DNA of 64,000 bases. Origin: Frankiales bacterium. GTDB taxonomy: Bacteria > Actinomycetota > Actinomycetes > Mycobacteriales > SCTD01. How positions within the stretch are numbered: the stretch's first letter is position 1; every line of letters begins with the position of its first letter. Below the pieces are notes generated by a model. That model saw nothing but the letters and a program-made list of their open reading frames with translations. It was not told the origin of the DNA and made no database searches. The translations under genes and the position numbers were made by a program. This document shows positions 9,787-55,294 of the stretch, in pieces. The DNA lies in the NCBI GenBank assembly GCA_025465465.1, contig JAODND010000091.1, positions 20,850 to 84,849 on the forward strand. Direction: 5' to 3'.

Positions 9787-9803
9787 GATACCTCCACGAG
9801 ACA

Positions 9804-9817
9804 ACCAACCGTTTGGT
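9804..9817. promoter_or_regulatory. candidate operator, site 2: ACCAACCGTTTGGT
   Basis: Lies in the 81-bp divergent gap between the SRPBCC start (9786) and the acyl-CoA ligase start (9868). Confidence 0.6.
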
Positions 9818-9867
9818 ACGGTACGCTGGTCATGCGAAGGTGACAAGCGCGTGACCGGGATGGAGCC

Positions 9868-15959: not shown

Positions 15960-16025
15960 TGGACGCTATCCGTGCAACACACCTGGGTCAAGCCGTTCAC
16001 GCGTCGGACTCGCCGTCGCCTCGCG

Positions 16026-16862: not shown

Positions 16863-16889
16863 GTGCCGTCCACCGTTCTGTCCGGAGTG

Positions 16890-20670: not shown

Positions 20671-20724
20671 GTCGACCCCTTCGCGAATGAGCTGTGACCC
20701 ACGCCACAGGCAGTACCACTGTCT

Positions 20725-20742
20725 ACCAATCGGTCGTTTGGT
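20725..20742. promoter_or_regulatory. candidate operator, site 4 (variant spacing): ACCAATCGGTCGTTTGGT
   Basis: Lies 54 nt upstream of the SBP start (20670). It has the same ACCAA/TTGGT arms and ct..tg flanks, but 8 nt rather than 4 nt between the arms. Confidence 0.4.
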
Positions 20743-20868
20743 TGTCAACAGCTCCGCAACGTCCGCGAGCCCTACCTCGACCTCGTCGAGGTAGGGCAAC
20801 GGGCGTGCTTGTGCTCGTCGTCCGAGCTCCCGTGCGCGAAGGCTCTGGTTGCGGCGACGAGCCGGCTA

Positions 20869-35528: not shown

Positions 35529-35542
35529 GTGCTGATCCTGCT

Positions 35543-36433
35543 CTAGTGGCCGCGGTACGGGTATCGGTGATCAAGGTCGAGATCGAGGTCGAGCACGTTG
35601 ACTGCGGGTTCGCCGAGGAACCCGAGGCCGCGGCCGGTGGTGTGCTTCGCCACCAGGCTGCGGACCTGCTCATCGGTGATGCCGCGCACCCTGGCGACGC
35701 GGGCAACCTGCAGCGCTGCGTACTCGGGGCTGATCTGAGGGTCGAGCCCTGAGCCGCTTGCCGTGACAGCGTCCGCCGGCACCGCGGGTGTGCCGTGGAG
35801 GCTGCCGCGGATCGCGACAAGCTGTCCGCGGGAGTAGTCGTCGCCGAAGACTCCGCACTCGACGGCGACTCCTTGGTAGGTGCGCAGGAACGGCGCCGCG
35901 GGGCAGGCTTGGTTGACACTCACGACGCGCGTGACGGTTCCTGCGTACCCAGGCCCGGCGTGGAAGACGGCGAGGACGGCGCCGACCCCACTGGGGGTGC
36001 AGTAGGGGCGGGCGCCGCTCACGCCCTCGAGCTCGCCGACGGCCTTGCTGCGAGAGCACACCAGCGTGAGCAGATGCTGGGTGCCGCTGTCGTCCTTGTT
36101 CTTCGGGTCGGGAAGCACATCGACGATGCTCTCCGGACCAAGGTTGCTGGCGCTGGAGGCGGTCGGATCGTAGCCCGCACCGGCGGCCGAGGGTCGGCTC
36201 TGGAAGTACTGCCGGAGCGGGTTGCCGTCCTTGTCGGTGAAGCTCTGCCCGATCAGCGTCGAACCGATCAGCGTGCCGTCGGCGTTGTAGACCAGCGACC
36301 CGTTGGCGCGGTCCTTCAGGCCCGGAATCTGCGCGACGGCGGTGACGGCCAGGGGATAGACGACGCCGGTGATGACGGTCATCACCAGGAGCAGTCGCAG
36401 GGCGGCGGAGTACTGCCGGACGGTGGCGCGCAT
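35543..36433 (-). CDS. kdpC: K+-transporting ATPase subunit C, with a large Cys-containing insertion
   Basis: 296 aa. The N-terminal TM segment, GSTLIGQSF and VTASGSGLDPQISP motifs are KdpC-like. It is about 85-100 aa longer than the roughly 190-aa E. coli KdpC. Confidence 0.9.
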   Translation of the reverse strand: MRATVRQYSAALRLLLVMTVITGVVYPLAVTAVAQIPGLKDRANGSLVYNADGTLIGSTLIGQSFTDKDGNPLRQYFQSRPSAAGAGYDPTASSASNLGPESIVDVLPDPKNKDDSGTQHLLTLVCSRSKAVGELEGVSGARPYCTPSGVGAVLAVFHAGPGYAGTVTRVVSVNQACPAAPFLRTYQGVAVECGVFGDDYSRGQLVAIRGSLHGTPAVPADAVTASGSGLDPQISPEYAALQVARVARVRGITDEQVRSLVAKHTTGRGLGFLGEPAVNVLDLDLDLDHRYPYRGH

Positions 36434-36434
36434 G

Positions 36435-38545
<2,111 letters not shown>

Positions 38546-38546
<1 letters not shown>

Positions 38547-40210
38547 CAGCGCAGCCCTTCGGCGAGCGGACCCAGCGCGAGGGCTGGAAAGTAGGTGAGG
38601 GCGACGACGATGACCGTGACGCCGGTGAGGAAGCCCACGAACTGCAGCCGATGGGTCGGCAAGGTCCCGTCAGAGACGGGTACGTGGTGTTGGCGGGCCA
38701 GCGAGCCGGCGAGGCCGAGGACGAAGAGCATCGGCAGGAACCGGCCGAACAGCATGGCCAGGCCGAGGGCGGTGTTGTACCAGGTGGTGTTGACGCTGAT
38801 GCCAGCGAAAGCACTGCCGTTGTTGTTGCCGGCCGAGGTGAACGCGTAGAGCACCTCGGAGAAGCCGTGTGCGCCGCTGTTGAGCATCGAGGCGCGTTCC
38901 TTCGCGAACGACATCGCCAATGCCGTCCCGGTGAGGACGATCGCGGGGGTGCTCAGGATGTACAGCGACGCGAAGGTGACTTCGCGACGGCCGACCTTCT
39001 TGCCGAGATACTCCGGTGTGCGACCGACCATGAGGCCGGCGATGAACACCGAGAGGACCGCGAGCACGAGCATCCCGTACAGGCCCGAGCCGGTGCCGCC
39101 GGGCGCGACCTCGCCGAGCATCATGTTGAACAGGGTCACAGCGCCGCCGAGGCTGGTGTAGCTGTCATGGAAGCTGTTCACCGCGCCCGTTGATGTCGCC
39201 GTGGTCGTGCTCGCGAAGATGGCGGAGTCCGGGACACCGAAGCGGGTCTCCACGCCCTCGGTAGCTGCGCCGACGGCCGTCGGGACGGTCCCGTGGTGGG
39301 CGAGTTGGGCACCCGCCAGCAGCCCTGTGGTCGTGACGAGCAGCAGCCCCATCACGGCCGCGATGGCCAGGCCCTGGCGCTTGTCGTTCACCATCTTGCC
39401 GAAGGTGCGGCACAGCGCGAACGGGATGACGATCTCGAGGAAGGTCGAGAGCCAGTTGGTGTAGGTCGTGGGGTTCTCGAAAGGGTGGGCGCTGTTGGCG
39501 TTGAAGAACCCGCCGCCGTTGGTGCCGAGCTGCTTGATGGCTTCCTGGCTCGCGACCGGGCCGCCAGGCAGGGTCTGCGCTCCGCCGGCGAGGCCGGTGG
39601 CGCTGCGGTAGGCGTGCAGGTTCTGGATCTCGCCGGAGGCGACGAAGATCACGGCGACCAGGAAGGACAGGGGCAGCAGCAGCCGGAGTGTGCAGCGGGT
39701 CAGGTCGACCCAGAAGTTGCCGAGCCGGTCGGTGCGGGAGCGCGCGAAGCCTCGGACGAGTGCGATCGCGACGGCGATGCCAACGGCGGCGGACAGGAAG
39801 TTCTGCACGGCGAGGCCGAGGAACTGCGCGGTGTAGCCCAGGCCGCTCTCGCCGGAGTAGCTCTGCCAGTTGGTGTTCGTGGTGAAGCTGACCGCGGTGT
39901 TGAACGACTGCGCCGGCGGCATCTGCGGGACCGCGTACGGGTGCCCGAAGTGATGCTGCAGCCGTAGCAGCCCGTAGAGCGCAAGGATGGAGACCGCGCT
40001 GAAAGCCAGGACCGAGCGCAGGTAGGTAGCCCAGGTCTGGTCGGCCTCCGGGTCGACACCGACGGTGCGGTAGACGGCCTTCTCGACCCGGGTGTGCGAC
40101 GGGCTGGTGAAGATCCGGGCCATGTAGTCGCCCAACGGCCGGAAGGACACCGAGACAGCGACGACGATGCTGACGGCGAAGGCGAGCCCTGCGACGGTGG
40201 TCGCGCTCAT
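38546..40210 (-). CDS. kdpA: K+-transporting ATPase subunit A
   Basis: 554 aa, polytopic, with KdpA sequence features ([25 protein letters not shown]). Confidence 0.95.
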
Positions 40211-40616: not shown

Positions 40617-41228
40617 GTGTCCGTCGCGCCACTGCTGCACCGGGTCCTGCCGGAGTCACCGGTCCCTGGGTTCCGGCCGCGGGACGACGTCTTCCCGGTG
40701 CTGTCCCCGCTCGATGAGCTCTTCCCCTACGGTGGCCTGGCCCGCGGCAGCGTCGTGGCCGTCGACTCCCCCGCACTTGCGCTTGCCGTCGTCGCCGCGG
40801 CGAGCGGCGGCGGGGCGTGGTGTGCAGTTGCCGGGCTGCCAGTGCTCGGGCCAGCGGCGGCCGGTGAGATCGGGGTCGACCTGACCCGCCTCGTCGTCGT
40901 GCCCGCGCCGGGTGAGGTGTGGGCGACGGCGACCGCGACGTTGCTGGACGGGATCGAGATCGTGCTCGTCGTCGCACCGAAGCACGCCCGGAGCGCCGAG
41001 ATGCGCAAGCTCGCCGGCCGGGTGCGTGAGCGGCGCGGCGTGCTCATCCCGGTCGGCGGCTGGCCGGAGCAGGTCGATCTGCGGCTGCGCATCGAGAGCA
41101 GTGAGTGGATCGGGGCCGACGCGGGCTACGGGCGGCTGACCGGGCGGCGCTGCGCGATCAGCGCGAGCGGTCGCGGTGCAGCCGCCCGGGAGCGACGGGT
41201 GACGACGTGGCTACCACTCGGGTCGTGA
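40617..41228 (+). CDS. imuA': ImuA' (RecA/SulA-like mutasome accessory protein)
   Basis: 203 aa. It is the first gene of a cassette with imuB and dnaE2, sits directly behind the SOS box, and has a degenerate RecA-like core (GGLARGSVVAV). Confidence 0.75.
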   Translation: MSVAPLLHRVLPESPVPGFRPRDDVFPVLSPLDELFPYGGLARGSVVAVDSPALALAVVAAASGGGAWCAVAGLPVLGPAAAGEIGVDLTRLVVVPAPGEVWATATATLLDGIEIVLVVAPKHARSAEMRKLAGRVRERRGVLIPVGGWPEQVDLRLRIESSEWIGADAGYGRLTGRRCAISASGRGAAARERRVTTWLPLGS

Positions 41229-42766
41229 CGCTGTGGTGCCCTGACTGGCCCCTTGTCGCGCTTGAGGTCGACGCGGACGAGCAGGCTGCGGTGCTCGTGG
41301 GCGACGAGGTACTCGCCTGCACCGCGACTGCGCGCGCCGACGGCGTACGACGTGGGTTGCGTCGGCGTGAGGCGCAGCGGCGCTGTCCCGCACTGCGGCT
41401 GCTGGACCGCGACGAGCTGCGGGAGGCGCGCGTCTTCGAGCCGGTGCTCACCGCGCTCGATGCCGTGAGCCCCTCGGTCGAGGTCGTGCGACCCGGCCTG
41501 TGTGTGTTCACGACGAAGGGTCCGTCGCGGTACTTCGGGGGTGACGTGATCCTCGCCCGACTTTCTGCCGAGACGGTGCGCGACGTCATCCCGGCGACCG
41601 CCTTCGCGGGCATCGCGGACGGCCGCTTCGCCTCGCTGCTGGCTGCGCGCACGGCCGATCCCGAGGGCGTGGTCATCCCCCCGGGAGGCAGCGCGGCGTT
41701 CCTCGCGCCCTTGCCCGTCGCACTGCTGGACAGGACTGGCGAGCCGGGCCTGGCCGACCTGCTGGTCCGGCTCGGGCTGCGCACGCTCGGCGCGGTGGCG
41801 GCGCTGCCGACCCGAAACGTCGCCTCGCGGTTCGGTGCGCAGGGCACCCTCGCGCATCGGCTCGCACGTGGCTTGGACGAGCTGCCCGTGACCGCACGCG
41901 TCGCGCCGCCAGACCTCACCGTGCAGCAGGAGCTGGACCCGCCGGAAGAGACGCTGGAGCCGTTGGCGTTCGTGGCGAAGATGCTCGCCGACACGCTGCA
42001 GGCGGAGCTGGCCGTGCGGGGTCTCGGCTGCACGCGCGTGCTTGTCGAGGCGCAGACCGAGCATGGCGAGCAACGCGCCCGGCTCTGGCGGCAGGACGGC
42101 GCCCTGTCCGCCGCGGCGATCGCGCAGCGGGTGCGGTGGCAGCTCGCCGGCTGGCTCACCGGCGCCGCCTCGGAGCGACCGACCGGAGGGATCTCGCTGC
42201 TGCGGCTGACCCCGGACGAGGTGCACCGCGACGACGGCCGGCAGCTGCAGCTGTTCGGTGAGGCGACGGACGCGGACGAGCGGGCAGCCGTCGTGCTCTC
42301 GCGGCTGCAGGGGTTGCTCGGGTTCGATGCGGTGCTCGTACCGGTGCCCGCGGGTGGGCGGGACCCGGCCGACTACACCCGGCTCGTGCCGTGGGGCGAG
42401 CCGAAGCCGCCGGCCTGGACCGGCGAGCCGCCGTGGCCGGGGCGGCTGCCGGCACCCACCCCGACCGTGCTCTACCCAGAAACGCTGCCGGCCGTTGTCG
42501 TCGATGCGATGGACAAGCCCGTCTCGCTCGACGCGCAGGGCGCGGTCTCTGCTGCGCCGCAGGGGCTCTCGATCCGTGGTGGCACGCGGCTGCGCATCAC
42601 GTCGTGGGCCGGGCCGTGGCCGGTGAACGAGCGCTGGTGGGACCGCACTGAGTCACCGGTCGACGGCAACCAGCTGGCGCGCTTCCAGGTCGTCACCGAC
42701 GACGGCACAGCACGGCTGCTCATGACGACCGCGACCGGCTGGTACGTCGAAGGCGCGTACGTATGA
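41207..42766 (+). CDS. imuB: ImuB (catalytically inactive Y-family polymerase-like mutasome subunit)
   Basis: GTG at 41207 (VATTRVVTLWCPDWPLVALEV...), a typical ImuB N-terminus. It overlaps the end of imuA'. Confidence 0.85.
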   Translation: MATTRVVTLWCPDWPLVALEVDADEQAAVLVGDEVLACTATARADGVRRGLRRREAQRRCPALRLLDRDELREARVFEPVLTALDAVSPSVEVVRPGLCVFTTKGPSRYFGGDVILARLSAETVRDVIPATAFAGIADGRFASLLAARTADPEGVVIPPGGSAAFLAPLPVALLDRTGEPGLADLLVRLGLRTLGAVAALPTRNVASRFGAQGTLAHRLARGLDELPVTARVAPPDLTVQQELDPPEETLEPLAFVAKMLADTLQAELAVRGLGCTRVLVEAQTEHGEQRARLWRQDGALSAAAIAQRVRWQLAGWLTGAASERPTGGISLLRLTPDEVHRDDGRQLQLFGEATDADERAAVVLSRLQGLLGFDAVLVPVPAGGRDPADYTRLVPWGEPKPPAWTGEPPWPGRLPAPTPTVLYPETLPAVVVDAMDKPVSLDAQGAVSAAPQGLSIRGGTRLRITSWAGPWPVNERWWDRTESPVDGNQLARFQVVTDDGTARLLMTTATGWYVEGAYV

Positions 42767-42779
42767 GGAGCTGTCCCCG

Positions 42780-45700
42780 ATGAGCTTCAACAACAACCCG
42801 GCGATGAGCTGGGCCGAGCTTGAGCAACGGCTGTCCGACGGGCGTCCGAGCAACCAGCCGCCGCGCGCCGACGGAGGTGACAGCCCGGCGTGGTCACGCA
42901 AGCGACAGCCTTACGAGGCGATGCTTCATCGCACCCCTGGGCGCGTGCCCTATGCGGAGCTGCACTGCCACTCCAACTTCAGCTTCCTCGACGGCGCGTC
43001 CCATCCGGAGGAGCTCGCGGAGGAGGCCGCGCGACTCGGGCTCGAAGCGATCGCACTCACCGATCACGACGGCTTCTACGGCGTCGTGCGGTTCGCCGAG
43101 GCCGCGAAGGCCGTGGGGATACCGACGATCTTCGGCGCCGAGCTCGACCTCGCTCTTCCGCACACACGGCAAGGGCCGGCCGACCCGGGTGGCACCCATC
43201 TGCTCGTACTCGCACGAGACCCGGAGGGCTACGCGCGGCTCGCCCGCGCGATCAGCCTCGGCCAGCGCCGCGGTGAGAAGGGCCGACCGGCCTATGACCT
43301 CGGTCATCTCGCGGACGCACACGACGGTCACTGGCTCGTCCTCACCGGCTGCCGCAAGGGACTCGTACCCGGATCCCTGCCGCGCGATGAGCTCGGCACG
43401 CTCGTCGACGCGTTCGGCGCGGACAACGTCGCGGTCGAGCTCTGGGACCACGGCCGGCCCGACGACTCCGAGCGCAACGACTCACTCGCCGCGCTGGCGG
43501 CCGTGCATGGGCTGCCGACCGTCGCGACCAACAACGTGCACTACGCGACCCCCACGCGCTGGAAGCTCGCGACCGCGCTCGCCGCGGTGCGCGCACGGCG
43601 CAGCCTCGACGAGATCGACGGCTGGCTGCCGGCAGCACCTGTCGCGCACCTGCGCTCCGGCGCGGAGCAGGCGCAGCGCTTCGCACGCTGGCCGGGCGCC
43701 GTGCAACGCGCAGCGGAGCTGGGGCTCGCGTGCGCGTTCGACCTCGCGCTCGTCGCGCCGCGGCTGCCGAAGTGGGACGTGCCGGCAGGCCACACCGAGG
43801 CGACGTGGCTGCGCCACCTCACCCGGGAGGGTGCTCTCGTCCGCTACGGGCCGCGGCGTCCGGAGAGCGAGAACGCATACCGGCAGATCGAGAAGGAGCT
43901 CGACGTCATCGAGCAGCTCGACTTCCCCGGCTACTTCCTCATCGTGCACGACATCATGGGCTTCTGCGAGCACGCCGACATCCTCTGCCAGGGACGCGGC
44001 TCCGCGGCGAACAGTGCGGTCTGTTATGCGCTGGGCATCACCCAGGTCGACTCGGTCGGGCTCGGGCTGCTCTTCGAGCGGTTCCTCTCTCCTTACCGCG
44101 ACGGGCCGCCCGATATCGACCTCGACATCGAGAGCGATCGACGCGAGGAGGTCATCCAGTACGTCTACGGCAAGTACGGGCGCGACCACACCGCCCAGGT
44201 GGCCAACGTCATCAGCTACCGCCCGAAGTCCGCGATCCGCGACATCGGCCGCGCGCTCGGCTATGCGCCCGGCCAGCTCGACGCCTGGACGAAGCAGATC
44301 GAGCACTGGGGGCCGCTGCCCGCGGAGGCCGACACCGACACCCCGGACACCCTCGTCACCCTTGCCGGTGAGCTGATGGGGTTCCCCCGCCACCTCGGCA
44401 TCCACTCCGGTGGCATGGTGATCTGCGACCGGCCGGTGATCGAGGTGTGCCCGGTCGAGTGGGCGCGGATGGAGAACCGCACCGTCCTGCAGTGGGACAA
44501 GGACGACTGCGCGGCGACCGGGCTGGTGAAGTTCGACCTGCTCGGGCTCGGGATGCTCTCCGCGATCCACGTCGCGTTCGACCTCATCGAGGAGACCACG
44601 GGCGAGCGGCTAAGGCTCGCGACGCTGCCGCAGGAGGACCCGGCCGTCTACGACATGCTCTGCGCGGCCGACACGGTCGGCGTCTTCCAGGTGGAGTCGC
44701 GCGCACAGATGGCGACGCTGCCGCGGCTGCTGCCGCGGTGCTTCTCCGACATCGTCGTCGAGGTCGCCATCATCCGGCCCGGTCCGATCCAGGGCGGCTC
44801 GGTCCACCCCTACATCCGGCGTCGGCACGGCACAGAGCCCGAGACCTACCTGCACCCGCTGCTCGAACCCGCGCTGAAGAAGACGCTCGGCGTGCCACTG
44901 TTCCAGGAACAGCTCATGCAGATCGCGATCGATGTCGCGGGCTTCTCCCCTGCAGAGGCTGACCAGCTGCGTGTCGCGATGGGTTCCAAGCGGTCCGCCG
45001 AGCGGATGGAGCGGCTGCACGCCCTGCTGATCGAAGGCATGGCCGCCAAGGGCATCGACTCCGACATCTCCGAGCAGATCTACGACAAGATGCTCGCGTT
45101 CGCAAACTTCGGCTTCCCCGAATCGCACGCTGTGAGCTTCGCCTACCTCGTCTATGCCAGCGCATGGCTGAAACTGCGCCACCCGGGACCCTTCCTCGCG
45201 GCCTTGCTCAACTCCCAACCGATGGGCTTCTACTCACCGCAGTCGCTCGTCGCGGACGCGCGCCGACATGGCGTCACCGTGCGCGGACCGGACATCAACG
45301 CCTCGCGTCAGATGGCGCACATCGAGACCGATGGTGCGGTGCGGCTCGGGCTGCACTCGGTGCGCAGCATCGGCGACGACCTCGCCGCCGAGCTCACTGC
45401 CGGCGTGCCCTACACCTCGATCGGCGACGTCTCGCACCGGGTCGCGCTCACCGCGCACCAGCTCGAGGCTCTCGCAACAGCGGGGGCCTTCGGGTGCTTC
45501 GGGATCCCCCGCAGGTCGGCGCTGTGGACCGCGGGAGCGGCAGCCGGTTCGGGCCCGAACTCACTCGACGGTGTGCTGGTCGGCGCGGATGCACCGCACC
45601 TGCCCGAGATGACCGACCTCGAGCAGGCCGGCGCGGACCTCTGGGCCATGTCGATGTCACCGACCTTCGACCCCGTCCGGTTCTCACGGTCCCGGCTCGA

Positions 45701-46022
45701 CGCACTCGGCGTCGTCACCGCCGCCGCGCTGAAGGAGGTGGAGACCGGCACCCGCGTGCTCGTCGGCGGTGCGGTCGTGCACCGCCAGCGCCCAGCGACT
45801 GCGGGCGGAACGACCTTCGTCAACCTCGAAGACGAGACCGGCTTCGTGAACGTCATCTGCTCACGGACGCTCTGGGAGCGGCACCGACGGATCGCGCGCA
45901 CCGCCCCAGGGCTGCTGATCCGCGGCCGCGTCGAAAACGTGGAAAACGTCGTCAACGTCATTGCCGACAAGATCCAGCCCCTCCCCCTCGCCACCTCCAG
46001 CACCTCGCGTGACTTCCGTTGA
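42780..46022 (+). CDS. dnaE2: error-prone DNA polymerase III alpha subunit DnaE2
   Basis: 1080 aa with a PHP domain (YAELHCHSNFSFLDGAS), the polymerase core and a C-terminal OB-fold. It has the DnaE2-type N-terminus (PAMSWAELEQRLS). Confidence 0.95.
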   Translation: MSFNNNPAMSWAELEQRLSDGRPSNQPPRADGGDSPAWSRKRQPYEAMLHRTPGRVPYAELHCHSNFSFLDGASHPEELAEEAARLGLEAIALTDHDGFYGVVRFAEAAKAVGIPTIFGAELDLALPHTRQGPADPGGTHLLVLARDPEGYARLARAISLGQRRGEKGRPAYDLGHLADAHDGHWLVLTGCRKGLVPGSLPRDELGTLVDAFGADNVAVELWDHGRPDDSERNDSLAALAAVHGLPTVATNNVHYATPTRWKLATALAAVRARRSLDEIDGWLPAAPVAHLRSGAEQAQRFARWPGAVQRAAELGLACAFDLALVAPRLPKWDVPAGHTEATWLRHLTREGALVRYGPRRPESENAYRQIEKELDVIEQLDFPGYFLIVHDIMGFCEHADILCQGRGSAANSAVCYALGITQVDSVGLGLLFERFLSPYRDGPPDIDLDIESDRREEVIQYVYGKYGRDHTAQVANVISYRPKSAIRDIGRALGYAPGQLDAWTKQIEHWGPLPAEADTDTPDTLVTLAGELMGFPRHLGIHSGGMVICDRPVIEVCPVEWARMENRTVLQWDKDDCAATGLVKFDLLGLGMLSAIHVAFDLIEETTGERLRLATLPQEDPAVYDMLCAADTVGVFQVESRAQMATLPRLLPRCFSDIVVEVAIIRPGPIQGGSVHPYIRRRHGTEPETYLHPLLEPALKKTLGVPLFQEQLMQIAIDVAGFSPAEADQLRVAMGSKRSAERMERLHALLIEGMAAKGIDSDISEQIYDKMLAFANFGFPESHAVSFAYLVYASAWLKLRHPGPFLAALLNSQPMGFYSPQSLVADARRHGVTVRGPDINASRQMAHIETDGAVRLGLHSVRSIGDDLAAELTAGVPYTSIGDVSHRVALTAHQLEALATAGAFGCFGIPRRSALWTAGAAAGSGPNSLDGVLVGADAPHLPEMTDLEQAGADLWAMSMSPTFDPVRFSRSRLDALGVVTAAALKEVETGTRVLVGGAVVHRQRPATAGGTTFVNLEDETGFVNVICSRTLWERHRRIARTAPGLLIRGRVENVENVVNVIADKIQPLPLATSSTSRDFR

Positions 46023-46075
46023 CGGCGCTGCCTTGGTGAGCCCCTGGGAGGCGGACGCGCGGAAGGGCTGCGTCG

Positions 46076-46906
46076 TCACTGGTCGCCGAGATCGACGAGG
46101 TAGTGGCCAAAGCGAAGTTCGAATTCACGTCCAACTTCAGCGGCCCGTCGCCGCAGCCGGCCTCCGCGCTCTCGAAGAGAGGGCCACGAGAAGGCTGCGA
46201 GAAAGCTGTCCTGGGTCTCGATGAGGTCCTCGGCTCGAGGGAGAGTCCGCCGATTCACGAGACGTTTGGCCTCGGCGAGAGCAGCTTTGTCGAATGAGGC
46301 AATTCGACGAGCGAGTGCATCGACGAAGTCGTCCAGTTCATCGTCGGGCAGGGCACGGTTGATCCAGCCATATTGCGCCGCCGTCTCAGCATCGAAGTCG
46401 TCGCTCCCGAGGATGATCTCCAATGCCCGGGCCCGTCCCACGAGGAGCGGGAGTCGCTCGAGTGCACCGCCGCCGGGGAACATGCCTGCGCCGACCTCTG
46501 GTTGGCCGAACACGGCCTTCTCTCGGCTCGCGAATCGCAGGTCCAAGGCGAGGGCTGCCTCGCTTCCGCCTCCTCGGTTGCGGCCACGGATCTTGGCGAT
46601 CGTCACGACCGGTGTCGTCGCGAGGCGCACGGTTGTGTCGATGAACGTCGGGAGGCCCGTCGGACCTGGCGCGACGGGTGTCTCGGCAGCCCGCGAGACG
46701 TCATAGTGATTGATGAAGAAATCTGGATCAGCGCTCTCGATCACCACGACGCGCAGCGCATCGTCGATCTCAAACCGACTGACCAGCTCCTGGAGTTCGA
46801 GGATCGTGTCTGGGTCTTGGAGGTTGAGGGGAGGGTTGCTGAAGCTGACCTGCCAGTAGGCCGGCGTCACTTCGGTGATGGTGAACTGGGTCAGTTCGGT
46901 AGTCAT
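46076..46906 (-). CDS. enoyl-CoA hydratase/isomerase (crotonase) family protein
   Basis: 276 aa. WQVSFSNPPLNL...VVVIESADPDFFINHYD...GGGSEAALALDLRFAS is a crotonase-fold pattern. Confidence 0.85.
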   Translation of the reverse strand: MTTELTQFTITEVTPAYWQVSFSNPPLNLQDPDTILELQELVSRFEIDDALRVVVIESADPDFFINHYDVSRAAETPVAPGPTGLPTFIDTTVRLATTPVVTIAKIRGRNRGGGSEAALALDLRFASREKAVFGQPEVGAGMFPGGGALERLPLLVGRARALEIILGSDDFDAETAAQYGWINRALPDDELDDFVDALARRIASFDKAALAEAKRLVNRRTLPRAEDLIETQDSFLAAFSWPSLRERGGRLRRRAAEVGREFELRFGHYLVDLGDQ

Positions 46907-46996
46907 GCGTTCCCTTCCGATTCTGGGAATGTCAAAGCCGCGTGCTCTGCGGGACGCGGCAGGGCGTCGCGCGACGGACTCACCACGGCGCGCGCC

Positions 46997-48496: not shown

Positions 48497-49608
48497 CGAA
48501 CGAACTCGACGTCGCCGACTTCCAGATCGCTGTTCCTGACGCCGATCTGGACGATCTGCACCGACGCCTCAGCGCCACTCGTTGGCCACGCCGGTGGCCC
48601 GAACCACGCTGGGCTGCCGGCACCGACCAGGACATCCTTGAGCGCCTCGTCACCTACTGGCGGGACGGGTTCGACTGGCGCGCTCACGAGGCGCGCCTGA
48701 ACGCTGAGCCACAGAGGATGGCCGCCCTCAGCGGGCAAGGAGTCCACTTCGTCCACGTGCGAGCGGGAGCACCAACAGGGCTACCGGTCGTGACCACGAA
48801 CGGCTGGCCGAGCACCTTCGCCGAGATGATCCCGCTCGCCCATCGACTCGCCGACCTCGGCCATGACGTCGTCGTGCCGTCGTTGCCCGGGTTCACGTTC
48901 TCCGACCAGCAGGCCACGGCGCCCGGCGAGATCCCGACCTCCGAGCTGTGGCACCGCCTCATGACCGGCCTCGGTTACGACCGTTATGTCGCGCACGGCG
49001 GCGACCTCGGTGCCGGCATCACCTCGCGCTTGGGCGCTGCACATCCCGAAACTGTGGCCGGGATCCACCTCATGGCCGTGATGGGCGCAAACAGCCACGA
49101 CAACCTCACGGACGATGAAGTTGCCTACCTTGACGGAATGACCGAATGGGATGACGACGGCGGCGCCTACCAACACCAGCAGCAGACGCGACCCATGACG
49201 CTCGCCTATGGCCTCACCGACTCACCGGCGGGACTGTTGGCGTGGATCACCGAGAAGTACCGCGCCTGGAGCGACTGCGACGGCGACCTGGCCCGCCGCT
49301 GGAGCGACGACGACATCCTCGTGCAGGCGTCGCTCTACTGGTTCACCAACACGATCGGCACCTCGTTCCGCCCCTATTACGACTACCGCGCCCACCGCAA
49401 GCCCGAGAGCACAGTTGCGATGGGCGACGTGCCGACCGCGATCGCTGCCTTCCCACACGACATCGCAACGCCACCACGGGAGTACGCCGAGCGCACCTAC
49501 AACGTCGTGCAGTACACACGCTTCGACCGCGGTGGGCACTTCGCACCACACGAGGAGCCCGATCTCCTTGCAGCCGACATCCACGCATTTGCCGAGACAC
49601 TCGATTGA
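48493..49608 (+). CDS. epoxide hydrolase (alpha/beta hydrolase with EHN N-terminal domain)
   Basis: 371 aa. FQIAVPDADLDDLHRRLSATRWP...GVHFVHVRAG...TNGWPSTF is the microsomal-type EH N-domain plus core. Confidence 0.85.
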   Translation: MTNELDVADFQIAVPDADLDDLHRRLSATRWPRRWPEPRWAAGTDQDILERLVTYWRDGFDWRAHEARLNAEPQRMAALSGQGVHFVHVRAGAPTGLPVVTTNGWPSTFAEMIPLAHRLADLGHDVVVPSLPGFTFSDQQATAPGEIPTSELWHRLMTGLGYDRYVAHGGDLGAGITSRLGAAHPETVAGIHLMAVMGANSHDNLTDDEVAYLDGMTEWDDDGGAYQHQQQTRPMTLAYGLTDSPAGLLAWITEKYRAWSDCDGDLARRWSDDDILVQASLYWFTNTIGTSFRPYYDYRAHRKPESTVAMGDVPTAIAAFPHDIATPPREYAERTYNVVQYTRFDRGGHFAPHEEPDLLAADIHAFAETLD

Positions 49609-49674
49609 TCGTCTCGACCTCGCATCAGCGACGCGGTGACGAAGGTTTCGTGGGACGCCTGCTGACAGCAGTGC

Positions 49675-50877
49675 TCATCGGCTGGTCGAACCGAAGCAGG
49701 CCTGCCAGCCGCCGCTCTCGTACCGCGCTTTGGAGCAGTAGACCGCCTTCGGGTAGTACCGCCCCATCACGGACCGCGCCGACTGGCCGGGAGAGGTGAT
49801 GCGCTGCGCGGCGAAGCGGAAACCCGGGTTCGGCAGCATGTTGCGGAAGACGACCTGCGCCGTCGCCTGCGTACCGCCCCACGGCAGCCAGGTCACGCCG
49901 TGCGCGGCGTCGGCGTTGCTCGGCCGCTGACCTGGATCAGAGACGACGTAGGTATAGGCGCCATCGCGAAGGGACGAGGTGTAGTCGGCGGCGCAGCCGA
50001 AGCCCGCTTCGCCCTGGGAGTCGTAGACGCAGAACGACCAGTAGCGCAGCTGTGTGGCCTTGGACGGAGAGACGCCACGTCGGTTGTCTGGGAAGGTCGG
50101 GGCCGTCGCGTGGATGACCACGATGTCGCCGTACTGCCGGTCGATCTGCGCAGCCAGGTAGGCGTTCTGCTGGTTGCCCAGCGCGCTGCCGAACTGTCGT
50201 TCCCACACCGGCTTCGTCGCGTCGCCGCCGCTCTGCCGGAGGGCCGAGGGATAGTCCGACTCGGCTGCCACCGACCACAGTGCTGACCCGAACGGCGGCG
50301 GCGTGGTCGAGCACGACGTCTCGCGCACATCGGCACCGGAGACCGGGTGCAGCGTGATCTGCGGGAACGCAACGCCGCCCTGCGGGCTCGCTGGGTCGGT
50401 CGGCACATACACCCGGTAGACGAGCAGCGCGATCCCCGGCGCACCGACCGGGGCGTAGAGGGTGTTGATCGCGCGCTGCTTCGGCGCCGCGGCGAAGCGG
50501 ATCGTCAGGGAGTACGACCCGTGCCCGAGCCGTCCGTTGCCGGGCCGGAACGGGCTGGTGCTGCCCTTCGCCGGTGTGAGCTGGGCGTCGTAGAGCGAGT
50601 CGAGCGGCTGACCGGTGCGGTCGTAGACGTGGAAGGAGAAGTAGCGGGCAGACGGGTAGGTGCCGTCGAGCGTGACCGTCTCGCCGCTCGTCACCGCGAT
50701 CGGGTTCGCCCAGTAGTGGGCATCCAGGTCAGGGGCCCCGATGTTCACGTCCCTCTGGTCGGTCTCGCCGTACCAGGAGCAGGCCGGCGCCGGGATCGGC
50801 GCCGCACCAACGGCCGGGGCGACGAGTCCAGTGGTGAGGAGCAGACCGAGCAGCAGCATCAGGCGAGGCACACGCAT
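49675..50877 (-). CDS. secreted protein of unknown function with two DUF1254/DUF1214-like motif repeats
   Basis: 400 aa with signal peptide MRVPRLMLLLGLLLTTGLVAPAVGAAP. It has the repeated motifs ARYFSFHVYD and LRYWSFCVYD, and 8 cysteines. Confidence 0.75.
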   Translation of the reverse strand: MRVPRLMLLLGLLLTTGLVAPAVGAAPIPAPACSWYGETDQRDVNIGAPDLDAHYWANPIAVTSGETVTLDGTYPSARYFSFHVYDRTGQPLDSLYDAQLTPAKGSTSPFRPGNGRLGHGSYSLTIRFAAAPKQRAINTLYAPVGAPGIALLVYRVYVPTDPASPQGGVAFPQITLHPVSGADVRETSCSTTPPPFGSALWSVAAESDYPSALRQSGGDATKPVWERQFGSALGNQQNAYLAAQIDRQYGDIVVIHATAPTFPDNRRGVSPSKATQLRYWSFCVYDSQGEAGFGCAADYTSSLRDGAYTYVVSDPGQRPSNADAAHGVTWLPWGGTQATAQVVFRNMLPNPGFRFAAQRITSPGQSARSVMGRYYPKAVYCSKARYESGGWQACFGSTSR

Positions 50878-51033
50878 GACGCAGTCCTTCGCGGCGGCGA
50901 AGAGATTTCCTACCGAAGTAGTAGATTAAGGCCGGTGGTGCTGGTCACACCCCGCCTTTCGCCGAAGGCTCAAGGCTCTGAGCCCAGCCCTAGACTCGTC
51001 GTCGCCCAGCCCACCCGGCGAGAGGAGTTGGGG

Positions 51034-51897
51034 ATGACCGCCGAGGAGCCCCGGGGCTGTTGTGCCCCGACGCGCCCCGCGTCTGCGGGCAGGGTCACCA
51101 TGGCGACGGGCGGTCGAGCGCCAAGCCTCGTCGCTGTGCCCGCAGGATCGTTCGTCATGGGGTATGAGGGTCTGCTCGCCAACCCGGGCGAGGGCGAAGG
51201 GCCCGTCCGCAGCGTCGAACTGCCGTCCTACGAGGTCGGTGCGACCACGGTCACGAACCAGCAGTTCGCCGCGTTCGTGAAGGCCACGGGGCATGTCACC
51301 GCAGCCGAGCTCGACGGCTGGTCGTTCGTCTTCGCCGCCCTGGTGACCGATCCGGCCGCGGTGACGGGCCGGGTGGCCGGGGCGGAGTGGTGGTGCGCCG
51401 TGAGGGGGGCGAGCTGGCGCGCGCCGCACGGGCCGGGGTCGTCGTCCGTCCAGCTCGCGAACCACCCCGTCGTACACGTATCCGCCGAGGACGCCGAGGC
51501 GTACTGCACCTGGACCGGTACCCGGCTCCCGACCGAGAGCGAGTGGGAGCGCGCGGCGCGCGGCGGTCTCGAGGGGGCCGTGTACCCCTGGGGCGATGAG
51601 CTGCAGCCCGAGGGCCAGCCCCGCTGCAACATCTGGCAGGGCGCGTTCCCCCACCAGCACACCGGAGCGGTCGGGACGGCACGAGTGAAGAGCTACCGCC
51701 CGAACGGCTTCGGTCTGTGGCAGTGCGTGGGCAACGTGTGGGAGTGGACCGCGTCGGAGCAGGACGGCAAGCGGGTACGCAGGGGCGGGTCCTACCTGTG
51801 TCACGACTCCTACTGCAACCGCTATCGCGTCGCCGCCCGCGACAGCAGCCTCGCTGGCGACTCCACCGGCAACATCGGCTTCCGTGTGGCGCGCTGA
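51034..51897 (+). CDS. formylglycine-generating enzyme (FGE/SUMF1 family)
   Basis: The ATG at 51034 is preceded by GAGAGGAG. It has VTNQQFAAFVKATGHVT, HPVVHVS, RLPTESEWERAARGG, NIWQGAFP and the active-site GGSYLCHDSYCNRYR. The upstream 229 codons of ORF 50347..51897 were dropped. Confidence 0.9.
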   Translation: MTAEEPRGCCAPTRPASAGRVTMATGGRAPSLVAVPAGSFVMGYEGLLANPGEGEGPVRSVELPSYEVGATTVTNQQFAAFVKATGHVTAAELDGWSFVFAALVTDPAAVTGRVAGAEWWCAVRGASWRAPHGPGSSSVQLANHPVVHVSAEDAEAYCTWTGTRLPTESEWERAARGGLEGAVYPWGDELQPEGQPRCNIWQGAFPHQHTGAVGTARVKSYRPNGFGLWQCVGNVWEWTASEQDGKRVRRGGSYLCHDSYCNRYRVAARDSSLAGDSTGNIGFRVAR

Positions 51898-51993
51898 ACA
51901 GCAGCCAGACCGCATCTTCCGGCTCGGTTTGATCGCTCAACAGACTAAATCGGTAGGGTTTGTCGCCTACTCCCAGCCAGAAGGACCTTTCAC

Positions 51994-52098
51994 GTGCTCT
52001 CCCGCCGCCGCCTGCTGCAGGCGACCGCTCTCGCCGCCGCCGGATGCCTCGGCGCTGTCCCCACCACCCTGATCGCCTCGCACGTGGACCCGACATGA
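51994..52098 (+). CDS. 34-aa upstream ORF encoding only a Tat/lipoprotein-like signal peptide
   Basis: Not in the ORF track. My translation gives VLSRRRLLQATALAAAGCLGAVPTTLIASHVDPT. The GTG is preceded by AGAAGGA 8 nt upstream. The TGA overlaps the ATG of the next gene (ATGA). Confidence 0.3.
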   Translation: MLSRRRLLQATALAAAGCLGAVPTTLIASHVDPT

Positions 52099-53657
52099 GA
52101 CGTGGGAGAACCGCGCGGGCGCTGTTGGCAGCCGGTGCCTTCGCCTCGCTCCTCAGCGCGGGGCCCGGGCACGCCGCTGCACCGAACCGTCCCGCTCTGT
52201 TGCCGGCCTGCGCCTACGGGACCTCAGCACCGGGTGTCAGCGGTTTCGCGGCCCGCGTCGAGCGCGACGCGTGGAGCTATGCCGACCGGCAGCCAGGTGA
52301 CGCGCCAACCCGTTCGACGACTGCGCGTGCGTTCGCCGCTGCCGAGGTCGCCTACGTCTACGGTCTTCCGCTGGTCGAGGTCCACGACACGATCCGTCAG
52401 TTCCGCTTCCGCAACACCACCGTCAGCATCGCCGAGCTCACGACGGCCGCGTCACGACGAGTCGTGTCACCCAACGTCGACACCCTGTACACCGTCGGCT
52501 GGCTGAGCCTCGCCCAGCAGCCCCTCGTGCTCGACGTCCCCGACACCGGCGGCCGCTTCTACACCTTCCAGCTCATGGACGGCTGGACCAACTCCTTCGC
52601 CTACCTCGGCTCCGGCTCCACCGGCACGCGAGCCGGGTCGTACCTGCTGACACCGCCCGGCTGGCGCGGCACCGTCCCGCCCGGCGTCCACTTGGTACGC
52701 AGCCCGACCCGCACCGTCTGGCTGCTCGGACGCACCCTCGTCGACGGCGCCGCCGACCTGCCGAAGGCCCGCCCGGTGCTTCAGCACTACACCGCCACGC
52801 CACTGGCAGCCTGGGTGGCCGGCGTCCGGGGCCGGCCCGTCGTGTTCGACAAGGCACCGCCTGCGCAAGCGAAGCCGGCAACACCCGCCGGCGGCGACTT
52901 CATCAGCACGCTGAACCGGCAACTCGTCCTCGACCCGCCGCCAGCGGATCAGACGTGCGTCCTGGACGCGCTCGCGCCGGCCGGCGTCCAGCGGCCCAGC
53001 TCGTCGGCCCTTGCCGTCCAAGCCGCAGATGCCGCCGACGTCGCGGGAGACCCGTCCGCGTCGCCGCTGCCAGCTCCTGACCCAGCCGTGACAGCGGGCA
53101 CGGCCGCGGCCGTGCGCCTCATCGCGGACGCGGCACGCACCTACCGGGCAACCACTTCCACCGGCCGGGCCGGCTGGAGCGTCATGACCGACCCGTGGAT
53201 CGGGGACTTCGGCCGGCAGTACCTCGGCCGCGCCATCATCGCCACCGACCTGCTCGGCGCCAACGTGCCACGCATCGCCGTCTACCCGACCAGCTACGCC
53301 GACCGAAGCGGACGGCCGCTCACCGGCCGGAGCCGCTACACGATCACCTTCCCGAAGGGGCAACTACCGCCGGTCAAGGCGTTCTGGTCGTTGACCATGT
53401 ACCAGAGCGACAACTTCCTCTACGCCAACAACAGCAACCGGTACGCCGTGGGCGACCGCACAGGCGGACTCCGCTATGGCAAGGACGGATCACTCACGCT
53501 GTACGTCCAGCACGACCCGCCCGCATCCGTCGCGCAGCGGGCCAACTGGCTACCCGCCCCGGTCGACGCGTTCCACCTCATCCTGAGGCTGTACCTGCCA
53601 AAGTCGACGGCTCTCAATGGCGCCTACCGCATCCCGCCGCTCGTCCGCGCTGACTGA
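52095..53657 (+). CDS. secreted DUF1254/DUF1214 domain-containing protein
   Basis: The ATG at 52095 begins signal peptide MRRGRTARALLAAGAFASLLSAGPGHAAAP. It has the DUF1254 motifs SPNVDTLYTVGW and GRFYTFQLMDGWTN, and the DUF1214 motif FWSLTMYQ. Confidence 0.85.
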   Translation: MRRGRTARALLAAGAFASLLSAGPGHAAAPNRPALLPACAYGTSAPGVSGFAARVERDAWSYADRQPGDAPTRSTTARAFAAAEVAYVYGLPLVEVHDTIRQFRFRNTTVSIAELTTAASRRVVSPNVDTLYTVGWLSLAQQPLVLDVPDTGGRFYTFQLMDGWTNSFAYLGSGSTGTRAGSYLLTPPGWRGTVPPGVHLVRSPTRTVWLLGRTLVDGAADLPKARPVLQHYTATPLAAWVAGVRGRPVVFDKAPPAQAKPATPAGGDFISTLNRQLVLDPPPADQTCVLDALAPAGVQRPSSSALAVQAADAADVAGDPSASPLPAPDPAVTAGTAAAVRLIADAARTYRATTSTGRAGWSVMTDPWIGDFGRQYLGRAIIATDLLGANVPRIAVYPTSYADRSGRPLTGRSRYTITFPKGQLPPVKAFWSLTMYQSDNFLYANNSNRYAVGDRTGGLRYGKDGSLTLYVQHDPPASVAQRANWLPAPVDAFHLILRLYLPKSTALNGAYRIPPLVRAD

Positions 53658-53704
53658 GACATCACCTCTGGACCCAGCAAGCGCGGATCCGCCAGCGGCT
53701 GGCA

Positions 53705-54286
53705 CTAGCCTCGCCGCAGGGGTTCGAGCATGAGGTCAAGTCCATCCTCAAGCTCACGAGTGCTGCCGGTCGCGAGCAGCAGCGAAACGCCTCCCTGGAC
53801 CGTCGCGATGATGGCGCCGGCGTAGCGGTCGGGATCGAGGGTCGCCGTGGTGCCTTGCATCGCCGCGACCCCGGCGGCTAGCTCGCGTCGCCACCGGATG
53901 AACAGGCTGCGCGTCACCTCCTGCGCCGCCGGATCACTACGGCCGAGCTCGGTCATCAACACAGCCAGCGGACACGTGCGGCCCTGTCGTCGATATCGCC
54001 GCACGACGGCTGTGCGCCATCGCTGCCAGTCGTCCCAGGTCGTAAGTGCTGACAAGTGGGGCTGCTGGTCGGACAGCACTCGATCGGCCTCGTGGTGCGC
54101 GACGGCGAGCAGCAACTCTTGACGCCCGCCCGGGAAGTAGTGGAAGAGCTGACTCTTGCTGGTCGCAGTCCGCGCACGGATCGCGTCGAGGGTTGCCTCC
54201 GGCACCCCGAGCTCACGGATGGTTGCCGCAGCGCCTTCGATGATCCGCTCGCGCGTTGCAAGACCCTTTGCCGTGATGCCTGTCAT
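53705..54286 (-). CDS. TetR/AcrR family transcriptional regulator
   Basis: 193 aa. The HTH reads IIEGAAATIRELGVPEATLDAIRARTATSKSQLFHYF. There is an ATGA overlap with the upstream SDR. Confidence 0.9.
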   Translation of the reverse strand: MTGITAKGLATRERIIEGAAATIRELGVPEATLDAIRARTATSKSQLFHYFPGGRQELLLAVAHHEADRVLSDQQPHLSALTTWDDWQRWRTAVVRRYRRQGRTCPLAVLMTELGRSDPAAQEVTRSLFIRWRRELAAGVAAMQGTTATLDPDRYAGAIIATVQGGVSLLLATGSTRELEDGLDLMLEPLRRG

Positions 54287-55044
54287 CGGGCGGCGGTCAG
54301 CACCGAGACCCGCCCTCCATCGACGTCAACGACGGTGCCGTTCATGTATGCGGCATCGTCGCTGGCGAGAAACGCGGCCGCGGCGCCGACGGCCGCCGGA
54401 TCCACCACCCGTCCGAGCGGCGTCGACTCCATCAACGGACCGGCGATCGCGATGACATCACTTCCATCCTCGAACGTGACGCCCGGTGAGATCGCGTTGA
54501 CGCGGACGCCGTACGCGCCGAACTCGGCGGCCCACGCGCGCGTGAGCGTCTCGACCGCGCCCTTCGAGGACGCGTATGCCGCGCCGCTCGGCATACCGAG
54601 CCGTGCGACCCACGAGCCCAAATTGATCACGACGCCACTGCCGGCGGCAACCATCGCAGGGACGAGCGCAGCGGTCAGAAAGAACGGCGCCTTCACGTTG
54701 ACGCCGAAGATGCGATCGAACGTCGCGTCGTCGAGCGCCAACGTCCCGCCGGGCGGGTAGACCCCTGCGTTGTTGACGAGGACGTCGATCGGTCCGTACA
54801 CCGCGGTCGCCTTGGTTGCGAGATCACGCGACGCGCGTGCGGATCCGTCGAGCTCCGCCGCGATGAAACTCGCCTCACCCCCCTTGCGCCGGATGCGCTC
54901 GACGACGGTGGCACCACGTTCAAGGTCCCGACCGGAGACGATGACCCGCGCACCGTCGGCGGCCAGCGCGATCGCGATCGACTTGCCGATGTTGCTGGTC
55001 GAACCAGTCACCAGAGCTGTGCGCCCGACGAGTCGTCTTGTCAT
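54283..55044 (-). CDS. SDR family oxidoreductase
   Basis: Internal ATG at 55044 (MTRRLVGRTALVTGSTSNIGKSIA...). It has NNAG and YASSKGA motifs. The longer ORF to 55374 runs through the tRNA and was rejected. Confidence 0.9.
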   Translation of the reverse strand: MTRRLVGRTALVTGSTSNIGKSIAIALAADGARVIVSGRDLERGATVVERIRRKGGEASFIAAELDGSARASRDLATKATAVYGPIDVLVNNAGVYPPGGTLALDDATFDRIFGVNVKAPFFLTAALVPAMVAAGSGVVINLGSWVARLGMPSGAAYASSKGAVETLTRAWAAEFGAYGVRVNAISPGVTFEDGSDVIAIAGPLMESTPLGRVVDPAAVGAAAAFLASDDAAYMNGTVVDVDGGRVSVLTAAR

Positions 55045-55059
55045 GCGATCGACGCTAGG

Positions 55060-55080
55060 TTGCAGAGATTGGACCTGCAA
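55060..55080. promoter_or_regulatory. inverted repeat TTGCAG-N9-CTGCAA upstream of the SDR-TetR operon (candidate operator)
   Basis: Lies 15 nt upstream of the SDR start and overlaps GGAC-CTGCAA-GTCC (55071-55084). Confidence 0.3.
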
Positions 55081-55151
55081 GTCCAGAGTCCTCCACCCGG
55101 CGACGGCGGGAGCGCCAGGACTACCAACCCACCGGATCCTGACCCGGCCCC

Positions 55152-55188
55152 ACAAAAAGTAGACCGAACCTGCAGATTGCAGGTCCGG
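55152..55188 (-). terminator. intrinsic terminator downstream of tRNA-fMet
   Basis: On the minus strand, CCGGACCTGCA-AUC-UGCAGGUUCGG forms an 11-bp stem with one G-U pair and a 3-nt loop. A U5 tract follows 5 nt later. The structure lies about 33 nt after the tRNA 3' end. Confidence 0.6.
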
Positions 55189-55220
55189 CCCATTCCGATG
55201 TCCTGAGACATCACATTTTG

Positions 55221-55294
55221 TAGCGGGGGCAGGATTTGAACCTGCGACCTCTGGGTTATGAGCCCAGCGAGCTACCGAGCTGCTCCACCCCGCG
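55221..55294 (-). tRNA. initiator tRNA-Met (CAT anticodon)
   Basis: Minus-strand sequence CGCGGGGTGGAGCAGCTCGGTAGCTCGCTGGGCTCATAACCCAGAGGTCGCAGGTTCAAATCCTGCCCCCGCTA. It has a 1:72 mismatch (C:T) and three G-C pairs in the anticodon stem, as in initiator tRNAs. The CCA end is not encoded. Confidence 0.9.

Follow-up and report, generated by a model that had tools for sequence, protein, structure and literature searches.

A lone formylglycine-generating enzyme gene in a Frankiales bacterium as the probable remnant of a decayed sulfatase operon

Genes of the locus and the deletion between them

We examined a 64,000-nucleotide stretch of a metagenome-assembled genome (MAG) of a Frankiales bacterium (assembly GCA_025465465.1, contig JAODND010000091.1, positions 20,850 to 84,849 of the forward strand), called the window below, in which a gene for a formylglycine-generating enzyme (FGE) stands between genes for two secreted proteins. 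The left neighbor encodes a 400-aa protein, which we call P400; the right neighbor encodes a protein with the domains DUF1254 and DUF1214, referred to here as the DUF protein (Table 1). A preliminary description of the locus, made from its sequence, had named these three genes, quoted a set of motifs, and judged the FGE to be complete; the genes lie where it had put them, the motifs are all present, and the FGE is complete. It had missed a 34-codon open reading frame (ORF) that lies between the FGE gene and the DUF gene.

The predicted product of the FGE gene is an intact and canonical aerobic FGE of the copper type. It matched PF03781 over the full-length domain (E value = 1.9e-67, profile positions 2 to 255 of 255), and its best matches in the PDB were the solved FGEs 6S07, 6MUJ, and 2Q17 (E value ~1e-82), which we take to be the enzymes of Thermomonospora curvata and Streptomyces coelicolor. 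Both cysteines of its LCHDSYCNRYR stretch are in register with the cysteine pair of the solved enzymes (window GGSYLCHDSYCNRYR aligned to GGSFLCHESYCNRYR in 6S07 and to GGSYLCHDSYCNRYR in 6MUJ), and we presume that the pair in this C-terminal C-x4-C-x-RYR stretch is the catalytic, copper-binding one. By eye, no signal peptide was evident in the FGE. We also considered the FGE-like paralogues EgtB, SenA, PvdO, GldK/J, and OvoA, which were ruled out by NCBIfam scores of 19 to 92 bits against cut-offs of 350 to 500 and by the best PDB matches being true FGEs.

Its closest counterparts are P0121, the FGE encoded on contig L007 (94% identity), and the FGE of a second Frankiales MAG, L008 (84%); the FGEs of Streptomyces are ~60% identical. 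The ratio of nonsynonymous to synonymous substitution rates (dN/dS) for the FGE gene was 0.30 against L007 and 0.19 against L008, the former being similar to the values that its neighbors gave against L007 (0.25 for the DUF gene and 0.18 for the P400 gene). The FGE gene shows no sign of decay, and these ratios do not discriminate, since so low a divergence does not permit a strong conclusion. FGEs act in trans; M. tuberculosis, for example, has one FGE alongside six type I sulfatases. Two further FGE homologues, L010 (77% identity) and L097 (74%), had no sulfatase gene on their contigs. For the L010 gene (10001-10882), 10 kb was checked on either side; for the L097 gene (1712-2611), the flanks covered 1.7 kb (upstream) and 8.5 kb (downstream). 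FGE genes distant from their clients are common in this group, and a lone FGE is in itself not unusual.

The statement in the preliminary description that no sulfatase was in sight held for the entire window. A tblastn search of the 64 kb with the two sulfatases of L008 gave no match at an E value below 0.9, and a six-frame scan of the window for the signature C/SxPxRxxxxTG gave no coding-like match, the few matches present being out of frame as judged by eye without comparison with the gene list.

Relatives of this locus do carry sulfatase genes. In L008, the FGE gene is followed by genes for a 556-aa sulfatase (sulfatase-1), a 515-aa sulfatase (sulfatase-2), and a 520-aa DUF1254/DUF1214 protein, with successive genes sharing 4-nt overlaps and the stop codon of sulfatase-2 overlapping the DUF start codon as ATGA. 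In L007, the order is P400 (minus strand), FGE, a 556-aa sulfatase, a 92-aa ORF, and then a DUF ORF that is cut by the contig end. The 92-aa ORF (9655-9933) aligned to residues 1-21, 253-275, and 468-515 of the L008 sulfatase-2; judged from this alignment, it is a sulfatase-2 relic made by two in-frame internal deletions, and it retains ATGA overlaps with both adjoining genes. Both sulfatases of the relatives carry the motif CAPSR and are therefore Cys-type clients of an FGE, and sulfatase clients adjoin the orthologous FGE in L007, L008, and L009. In L008, the DUF gene is followed directly (16016-20885) by genes for a phage-type integrase, an nSTAND NTPase, and transposases of the Mutator family; mobile elements border the intact operon. 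A scan of genome contigs with the DUF protein returned two loci, one duplicating L008 and the other being L011 (positions 1-2590; Frankiales bacterium BP_344, 96% nucleotide identity). The L011 contig starts 8 nt before the DUF start codon, and the enoyl-CoA hydratase gene that occupies 46062-46926 in the window sits downstream of the DUF gene there, so this close relative is rearranged on that side.

The window is collinear with L007 and L008 save for one gap, at 52069/52070, on which the base-level alignments agree. In blastn comparisons, window positions 49653-52069 matched L007 5623-8063 (94%) and 52075-53389 matched L007 9910-11218 (96%), and positions 51151-52068 matched L008 10139-11053 and 52070-53671 matched L008 14165-15766. 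The sequence missing from the window amounts to ~1.84 kb relative to L007, comprising most of sulfatase-1 and the 92-aa relic of sulfatase-2, and to ~3.1 kb relative to L008, comprising both sulfatase genes. The 34-codon ORF lies across this gap and translates as VLSRRRLLQATALAAAGCLGAVPTT joined to LIASHVDPT and a stop codon. The sulfatase-1 gene supplies its ribosome-binding site (RBS), AGAAGGA, and its residues 1-25, which are the twin-arginine signal (the equivalent in L008 is VLSRRRLLQATALAATGTLGTAPTT); its last ~9 codons are the C-terminus of sulfatase-2 (SHVDPT before the stop codon, where the L008 protein ends in NTSHVDPT). Its stop codon TGA shares nucleotides with the DUF start codon (ATGA), exactly as in L008 and L007. 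The ORF has lost the sulfatase catalytic domain together with CAPSR and carries neither PF00884 nor a C/SxPxR motif. An independent Logan contig, L093 (run SRR13312977), is 100% identical to window positions 51795-55247 and spans the end of the FGE gene, the relic, the DUF gene, and a TetR gene; a 34-aa gene was called at the relic there as well. No convincing microhomology or direct repeat was seen when the two ends of the deletion were inspected by eye in the alignments.

Table 1. Features of the FGE locus, in window coordinates
Feature	Position	Strand	Remarks
P400, 400-aa secreted protein	49675-50877	-	ORF; divergent from FGE; by its predicted model a remote, fold-level relative of DUF1254/DUF1214 proteins
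P400-FGE intergenic region, 156 bp	50878-51033		Divergent spacing; inside the 94%-identical block common to L007
FGE, 287 aa	51034-51897	+	ATG start, RBS GAGAGGAG; intact; PF03781
Relic ORF, 34 codons	51994-52098	+	GTG start; twin-arginine signal of sulfatase-1 joined to the end of sulfatase-2
Deletion junction	52069/52070		blastn and base-level alignments against L007 and L008
DUF1254 + DUF1214 secreted protein, 520 aa	52095-53657	+	ATG start; intact; domains by Pfam; last gene of the ancestral operon

These results indicate that sulfatases are absent from the locus because a deletion removed both genes and left a 34-codon scar, and that the direct adjacency of the FGE and DUF genes is secondary, because the deletion created it. 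On the strength of these comparisons, loss of the two sulfatase genes between the FGE and DUF genes very probably accounts for the lone FGE. Moreover, L008 (intact), L007 (most of sulfatase-2 lost), and the window (both sulfatases lost) form a three-stage decay series. All three deletions, two in L007 and one in the window, are in frame and retain the stop/start overlap into the DUF gene; were they independent events, the chance of this would be about 1 in 27. Retention of both frame and overlap suggests selection for continued translation of the DUF gene. Two points weigh against explaining the lone FGE in this way: the sulfatase searches covered the 64-kb window only, and the direction of change (a deletion here versus an insertion in the relatives) rests on parsimony. 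An insertion is very unlikely because the relic holds both a twin-arginine signal and a sulfatase C-terminus.

DUF1254/DUF1214 genes and sulfatases in other contexts

Both domains of the right neighbor were recognized by Pfam, PF06863 (DUF1254) at an E value of 5.7e-44 and 150.0 bits (cut-off, 22.2) and PF06742 (DUF1214) at 8.4e-36 and 123.3 bits (cut-off, 25). The protein is 100% identical to P0241, from a Frankiales bacterium MAG (locus tag JWL79_3378), and its gene is intact, with dN/dS values of 0.17 to 0.30. Its relatives in the PDB, 3U07 (E value = 1e-27), 3VB9, and 2P3Y, have no assigned function; these structures are of VPA0106 (3U07) and VPA0735 (3VB9 and 2P3Y) of Vibrio parahaemolyticus, which share its two-domain architecture. 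Judged by their titles and abstract openings, the papers listed in a literature search tie DUF1254/DUF1214 to neither a function nor sulfatases, and the literature on VPA0735, VPA0106, and a further structure, 6ANS, offers no function.

We looked at the neighborhoods of the family by scanning metagenome contigs with a profile of the DUF protein, which gave 80 loci at 33 to 56% identity with 528 kb of flanking sequence. The preliminary description had proposed such a comparison for the pairing of FGE with DUF1254/DUF1214 genes. Sulfatase genes occurred near the DUF gene in 7 of the 80 loci, one or two in each and always co-directional, and an FGE gene was also present in 3 of these 7. Among loci with 4 kb of flank or more, 7 of 39 were sulfatase-linked, and among those with 10 kb or more, 5 of 20 were. 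Gene orders differed among the seven (L021, L033, L036, L045, L046, L064, and L082), and Pfam confirmed the orders FGE-DUF-sulfatase-sulfatase in L036 and FGE-DUF-sulfatase in L045. When the flanking ORFs were clustered all against all, the sulfatases were the commonest neighbor family of the DUF genes, followed by a DUF1302/DUF1329 pair (5 loci). No sulfatase was found in 192 kb of other loci examined.

We consider it close to an even call that the functional association between DUF1254/DUF1214 proteins and sulfatases is real but facultative. Several observations weigh against an obligate link. The DUF homologues at 61 to 77% identity (L002, L094, L095, and L096) have neither a sulfatase nor an FGE gene nearby, 32 of the 39 well-flanked distant loci lack a sulfatase, and the DUF gene is intact in the window after the sulfatases were lost; contexts without a sulfatase and the persistence of the DUF gene mean that any link is therefore facultative. 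Furthermore, 6 of the 7 sulfatase-linked loci have a GC content of 58 to 60% and may come from one lineage, in which case there may be few independent events. Somewhat more tentatively, we propose that in a subset of lineages DUF1254/DUF1214 proteins, which are widespread, would be dedicated extracytoplasmic partners of FGE-dependent sulfatases and that the DUF gene would matter enough for decaying operons to retain in-frame relics for the coupling that these provide to it. Such a partner might, for example, capture sulfated substrates, perhaps lipidic ones, or process them downstream.

The neighborhood might instead be purely fortuitous, the DUF gene having no functional connection with sulfatases and just happening to follow a sulfatase operon in a single small clade of Frankiales, an explanation that we find rather doubtful and take seriously. 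It would fit the unrelated contexts of the closer DUF homologues (L094 beside ABC-type genes; L095; L096 beside an alpha-amylase/sugar ABC cluster; L002 beside the P400 gene), and also the 73 of 80 metagenomic loci without a sulfatase and the survival of the DUF gene beyond the sulfatases. It sits poorly with the 4-nt ATGA overlap between sulfatase-2 and the DUF gene of L008, which survived all three of the in-frame deletions seen in L007 and the window, and with sulfatases being the single most frequent neighbor family, always co-directional and in varied gene orders. The density of the genes also argues against it. Three FGE genes lie within the 528 kb of flanks. The M. tuberculosis genome has a size of about 4.4 Mb. 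The flanks contain about 10 sulfatase ORFs, versus six type I sulfatases in the whole M. tuberculosis genome, a count described as above that of most other bacterial genomes (PMC2459300). The preliminary description had itself allowed for a chance neighborhood, which is not quite right: the direct adjacency of FGE and DUF genes is secondary, and the neighborhood does not look purely fortuitous, the DUF gene being the last gene of the L008 operon and clusters of FGE, sulfatase, and DUF genes recurring elsewhere.

Two further features of the metagenomic loci were observed. Most of the DUF-clustered sulfatases in the loci of 58 to 60% GC carry C-T-A-G-R, a CxAxR motif (L036:11194-14769, L045:5032-6738, L021:4190-5533, L033, and L046:6566-7741). 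Three of these loci, L036, L045, and L046, also have an adjacent FGE that possesses both cysteines (LCAPNYCRRYR). Sulfatases of the CxAxR type are usually assigned to the anaerobic maturase (PMC2459300). In addition, the DUF1254/DUF1214 loci L028, L064, L086, L091, and L092 have neighboring ORF families in common, which by Pfam, with one example each, are DUF1329 (LolA-like; L091:8215-9753) and DUF1302 (L064:6604-8532; it clusters in 4 of the 5 loci). DUF1302 and DUF1329 proteins are outer-membrane proteins that fitness studies reportedly link to hydrophobic substrates. These neighbors hint that DUF1254/DUF1214 proteins might deal with lipidic molecules.

Other accounts of the locus and its surroundings

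The preliminary description had called both neighbors of the FGE DUF1254/DUF1214-like. Pfam supports this for the right neighbor, with both domains; for P400 it failed at the level of sequence and stood at that of the predicted fold. The N-terminus of P400 is signal-peptide-like, and its two motifs, RYFSFHVYD and RYWSFCVYD, are present. Neither the P400 sequence alone nor a profile matched anything in Pfam, NCBIfam, or the PDB; its family has 224 members at E values of at most 0.001, mostly from soil metagenomes, and PF06742 (DUF1214) matched 1 of 28 members, at 1.2e-4. An AlphaFold2 model built with 28 homologues (predicted local distance difference test score [pLDDT], 81.7; predicted TM-score [pTM], 0.79) had its best Foldseek match in 6ANS, an uncharacterized Burkholderia cenocepacia protein (1.1e-13), followed by 3VB9 (1.1e-9), 3U07 (2.2e-9), and 2P3Y (5.2e-9), at a probability of 1.00 and moderate TM-scores of 0.37 to 0.46. 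An hhalign comparison of P400 with the DUF profile was not significant (E value = 0.043, probability 1.2%); within this nonsignificant alignment, the expected segments were paired (YWSFCVYD with FWSLTMYQ, TWLPWGG with NWLPAP, and FRNMLP with LRLYLP). Going by the model, P400 is DUF1254/DUF1214-like at the fold level only. It is of the same fold class as VPA0106 and VPA0735 and differs from them in being shorter, in having six invariant cysteines, and in failing the Pfam models. Its gene is intact and keeps its position in L007. Elsewhere, in L067 (1325-3602), a distant DUF1254/DUF1214 gene (35% identity) is followed by a P400-like ORF on the same strand (30% identity, E value = 3.5e-13), a second, independent adjacency of these two fold-related families.

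The same description had raised the possibility of a link between formylglycine chemistry and the DUF family, such that the FGE would modify one or both flanking proteins as new, non-sulfatase clients. The FGE, P400, and DUF genes are physically adjacent in the window, the FGE and DUF genes are adjacent in L036 and L045 as well, and both neighbors are apparently exported and have invariant cysteines. We regard modification of either neighbor as highly improbable all the same, since the motif evidence and the gene contexts both speak against it. Among 28 P400 homologues, no alignment column showed C/S-x-P/A-x-R in 20% or more of the sequences, and P400 itself, as the preliminary description had said, has no C/SxPxR. 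In the DUF family, no more than 6 of 23 sequences showed C/S-x-P/A-x-R, in the form S-x-A-x-R and at nonconserved positions. Neither of the near matches that had been pointed out, TSPFR and DAPTR, is conserved; at TSPFR, the family consensus reads xNPF[RQV] with a variable first residue. The six invariant cysteines of P400 (28 homologues) lie in CSWYG, CSTTP, CVYDS, CAADY, CSKAR, and CFGST, and the invariant or near-invariant ones of the DUF family (23 homologues) lie in CVLDA and CAYGT. With no conserved C/SxPxR in either neighbor, neither is therefore a plausible canonical client. As for gene context, the adjacency of FGE and DUF genes in the window was produced by the deletion, a sulfatase is present in every other FGE-DUF cluster seen, and P400 adjoins the FGE in the window and L007 only, being absent beside it in L008, L010, and L097. 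To judge by the sequences compared, a link between the DUF protein and sulfatase systems is plausible, and a link to its own modification to formylglycine is not.

We also give very little credence to an assembly artefact, in which a chimeric or collapsed contig would hide sulfatases retained by the real genome. The source is a MAG, and the Logan contigs L001 and L093 (SRR13312977) end and start, respectively, in the 3' end of the FGE gene with a 22-nt overlap (window 51795-51816), a break that may point to strain variation in the sample immediately upstream of the deletion. L093, however, comes from a separate assembly and crosses the junction at 100% identity, and the reading frame runs cleanly through the junction to the native, overlapping stop codon, which is not expected of a mis-join.

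The least credible account is that the window is ancestral and the relatives gained their sulfatases by insertion, which could draw on L002 (8227-11218; also L003), where the P400 and DUF genes are direct divergent neighbors with no FGE or sulfatase gene, and on the mobile-element genes that adjoin the L008 operon, but an insertion would need to split a 34-codon ORF into two full-length sulfatases, the twin-arginine signal in the relic is complete and has an RBS of its own, the relic closes on the conserved C-terminal residues of sulfatase-2, and L007 shows independent partial deletions of sulfatase-2. The L002 proteins are 80% (P400) and 76% (DUF protein) identical to those of the window, and the similarity of L002 past the P400 start extends for just 73 nt (window 50878-50950). 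A search of the L002 P400-DUF intergenic region for relics of FGE or sulfatase genes found none; L002 may represent a further, complete deletion or the state before the cassette.

The wider window has a GC content of ~69%, and the genes that flank the locus are ordinary chromosomal ones by Pfam (epoxide hydrolase, TetR regulators, enoyl-CoA hydratase, and tautomerase-like); further genes include imuB-dnaE2, kdpABC/DE, and UPF0182. The region between the P400 and FGE genes presumably carries the promoters of both. A promoter and terminator scan of 49500-53900 gave no site; the sigma-70-like consensus that it used is not informative at the high GC content of an actinobacterium such as this. The minus strand at 32311-40210 contains a kdpABC operon together with kdpD/kdpE, and this region differs from the remaining window in its persistently positive GC skew (about +0.10); its KdpC is unusually long (296 aa), and two stretches of it match the KdpC profile. 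At 40617-46022, on the plus strand, three genes stand in a row: a 203-aa ORF without a Pfam match, a gene resembling those of Y-family polymerases (IMS domain), and a gene for a DnaE2-type polymerase; they are the usual actinobacterial imuA'-imuB-dnaE2 mutagenesis cassette.

History of the operon and comparison with known systems

Loss of two sulfatase genes by deletion leads us to propose the following history. The locus is very probably the remnant of an FGE-sulfatase maturation operon whose ancestral arrangement is that of L008, one transcription unit for four proteins. In it, a cytoplasmic FGE of the copper type would convert the cysteine of CAPSR in two sulfatases to formylglycine before their export by the twin-arginine pathway, and the fourth product would be the secreted DUF1254/DUF1214 protein, whose start overlaps the stop of sulfatase-2. 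In the lineage of the window, a deletion removed the stretch that starts at codon 26 of sulfatase-1 and stops ~9 codons short of the sulfatase-2 end, leaving the FGE gene directly upstream of the DUF gene with the 34-codon in-frame fusion ORF between them. The FGE may still serve sulfatases encoded elsewhere in the genome, or it may only recently have been orphaned, and the in-frame relic would maintain translational coupling into the DUF gene. In some lineages, the DUF1254/DUF1214 protein would act as an extracytoplasmic accessory of sulfatase-based scavenging rather than as a substrate of the FGE, possibly by binding or further processing the sulfated substrate.

The locus carries a caution, in that an orphan maturation enzyme beside unknown proteins seemed to offer new formylglycine chemistry and close relatives show plain gene loss with a readable scar. 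It also provides a clean three-stage series of operon decay in which the frame and the overlap with the last gene were kept each time. Finally, it yields a testable guilt-by-association lead for DUF1254/DUF1214, a large family with crystal structures and no assigned function, for which sulfatases were the top neighbors in the sampled loci.

Among known systems, the FGE of the window has the same PF03781 domain and the cysteine pair of LCHxSYCxRYR as the FGEs of M. tuberculosis (Rv0712) and S. coelicolor (Carlson et al. 2008, PMC2459300; 2Q17, 6MUJ, and 6S07). As in prokaryotic systems of an FGE and Cys-type sulfatases, the closest relatives of the locus have an FGE gene followed by genes for CAPSR sulfatases with twin-arginine signals; unlike those systems, the window has lost the client genes by deletion, and the operon has an extra DUF1254/DUF1214 gene. 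The locus is thus a degraded operon of a known kind, that of FGE and Cys-type sulfatases, and a case of ordinary gene decay. The decay of operons by internal deletions that leave short relic ORFs is a general phenomenon, and the stepwise loss of genes no longer needed, seen across L008, L007, and the window, is like it; unlike the general case, all three deletions here are in frame and keep the stop/start overlap into the DUF gene.

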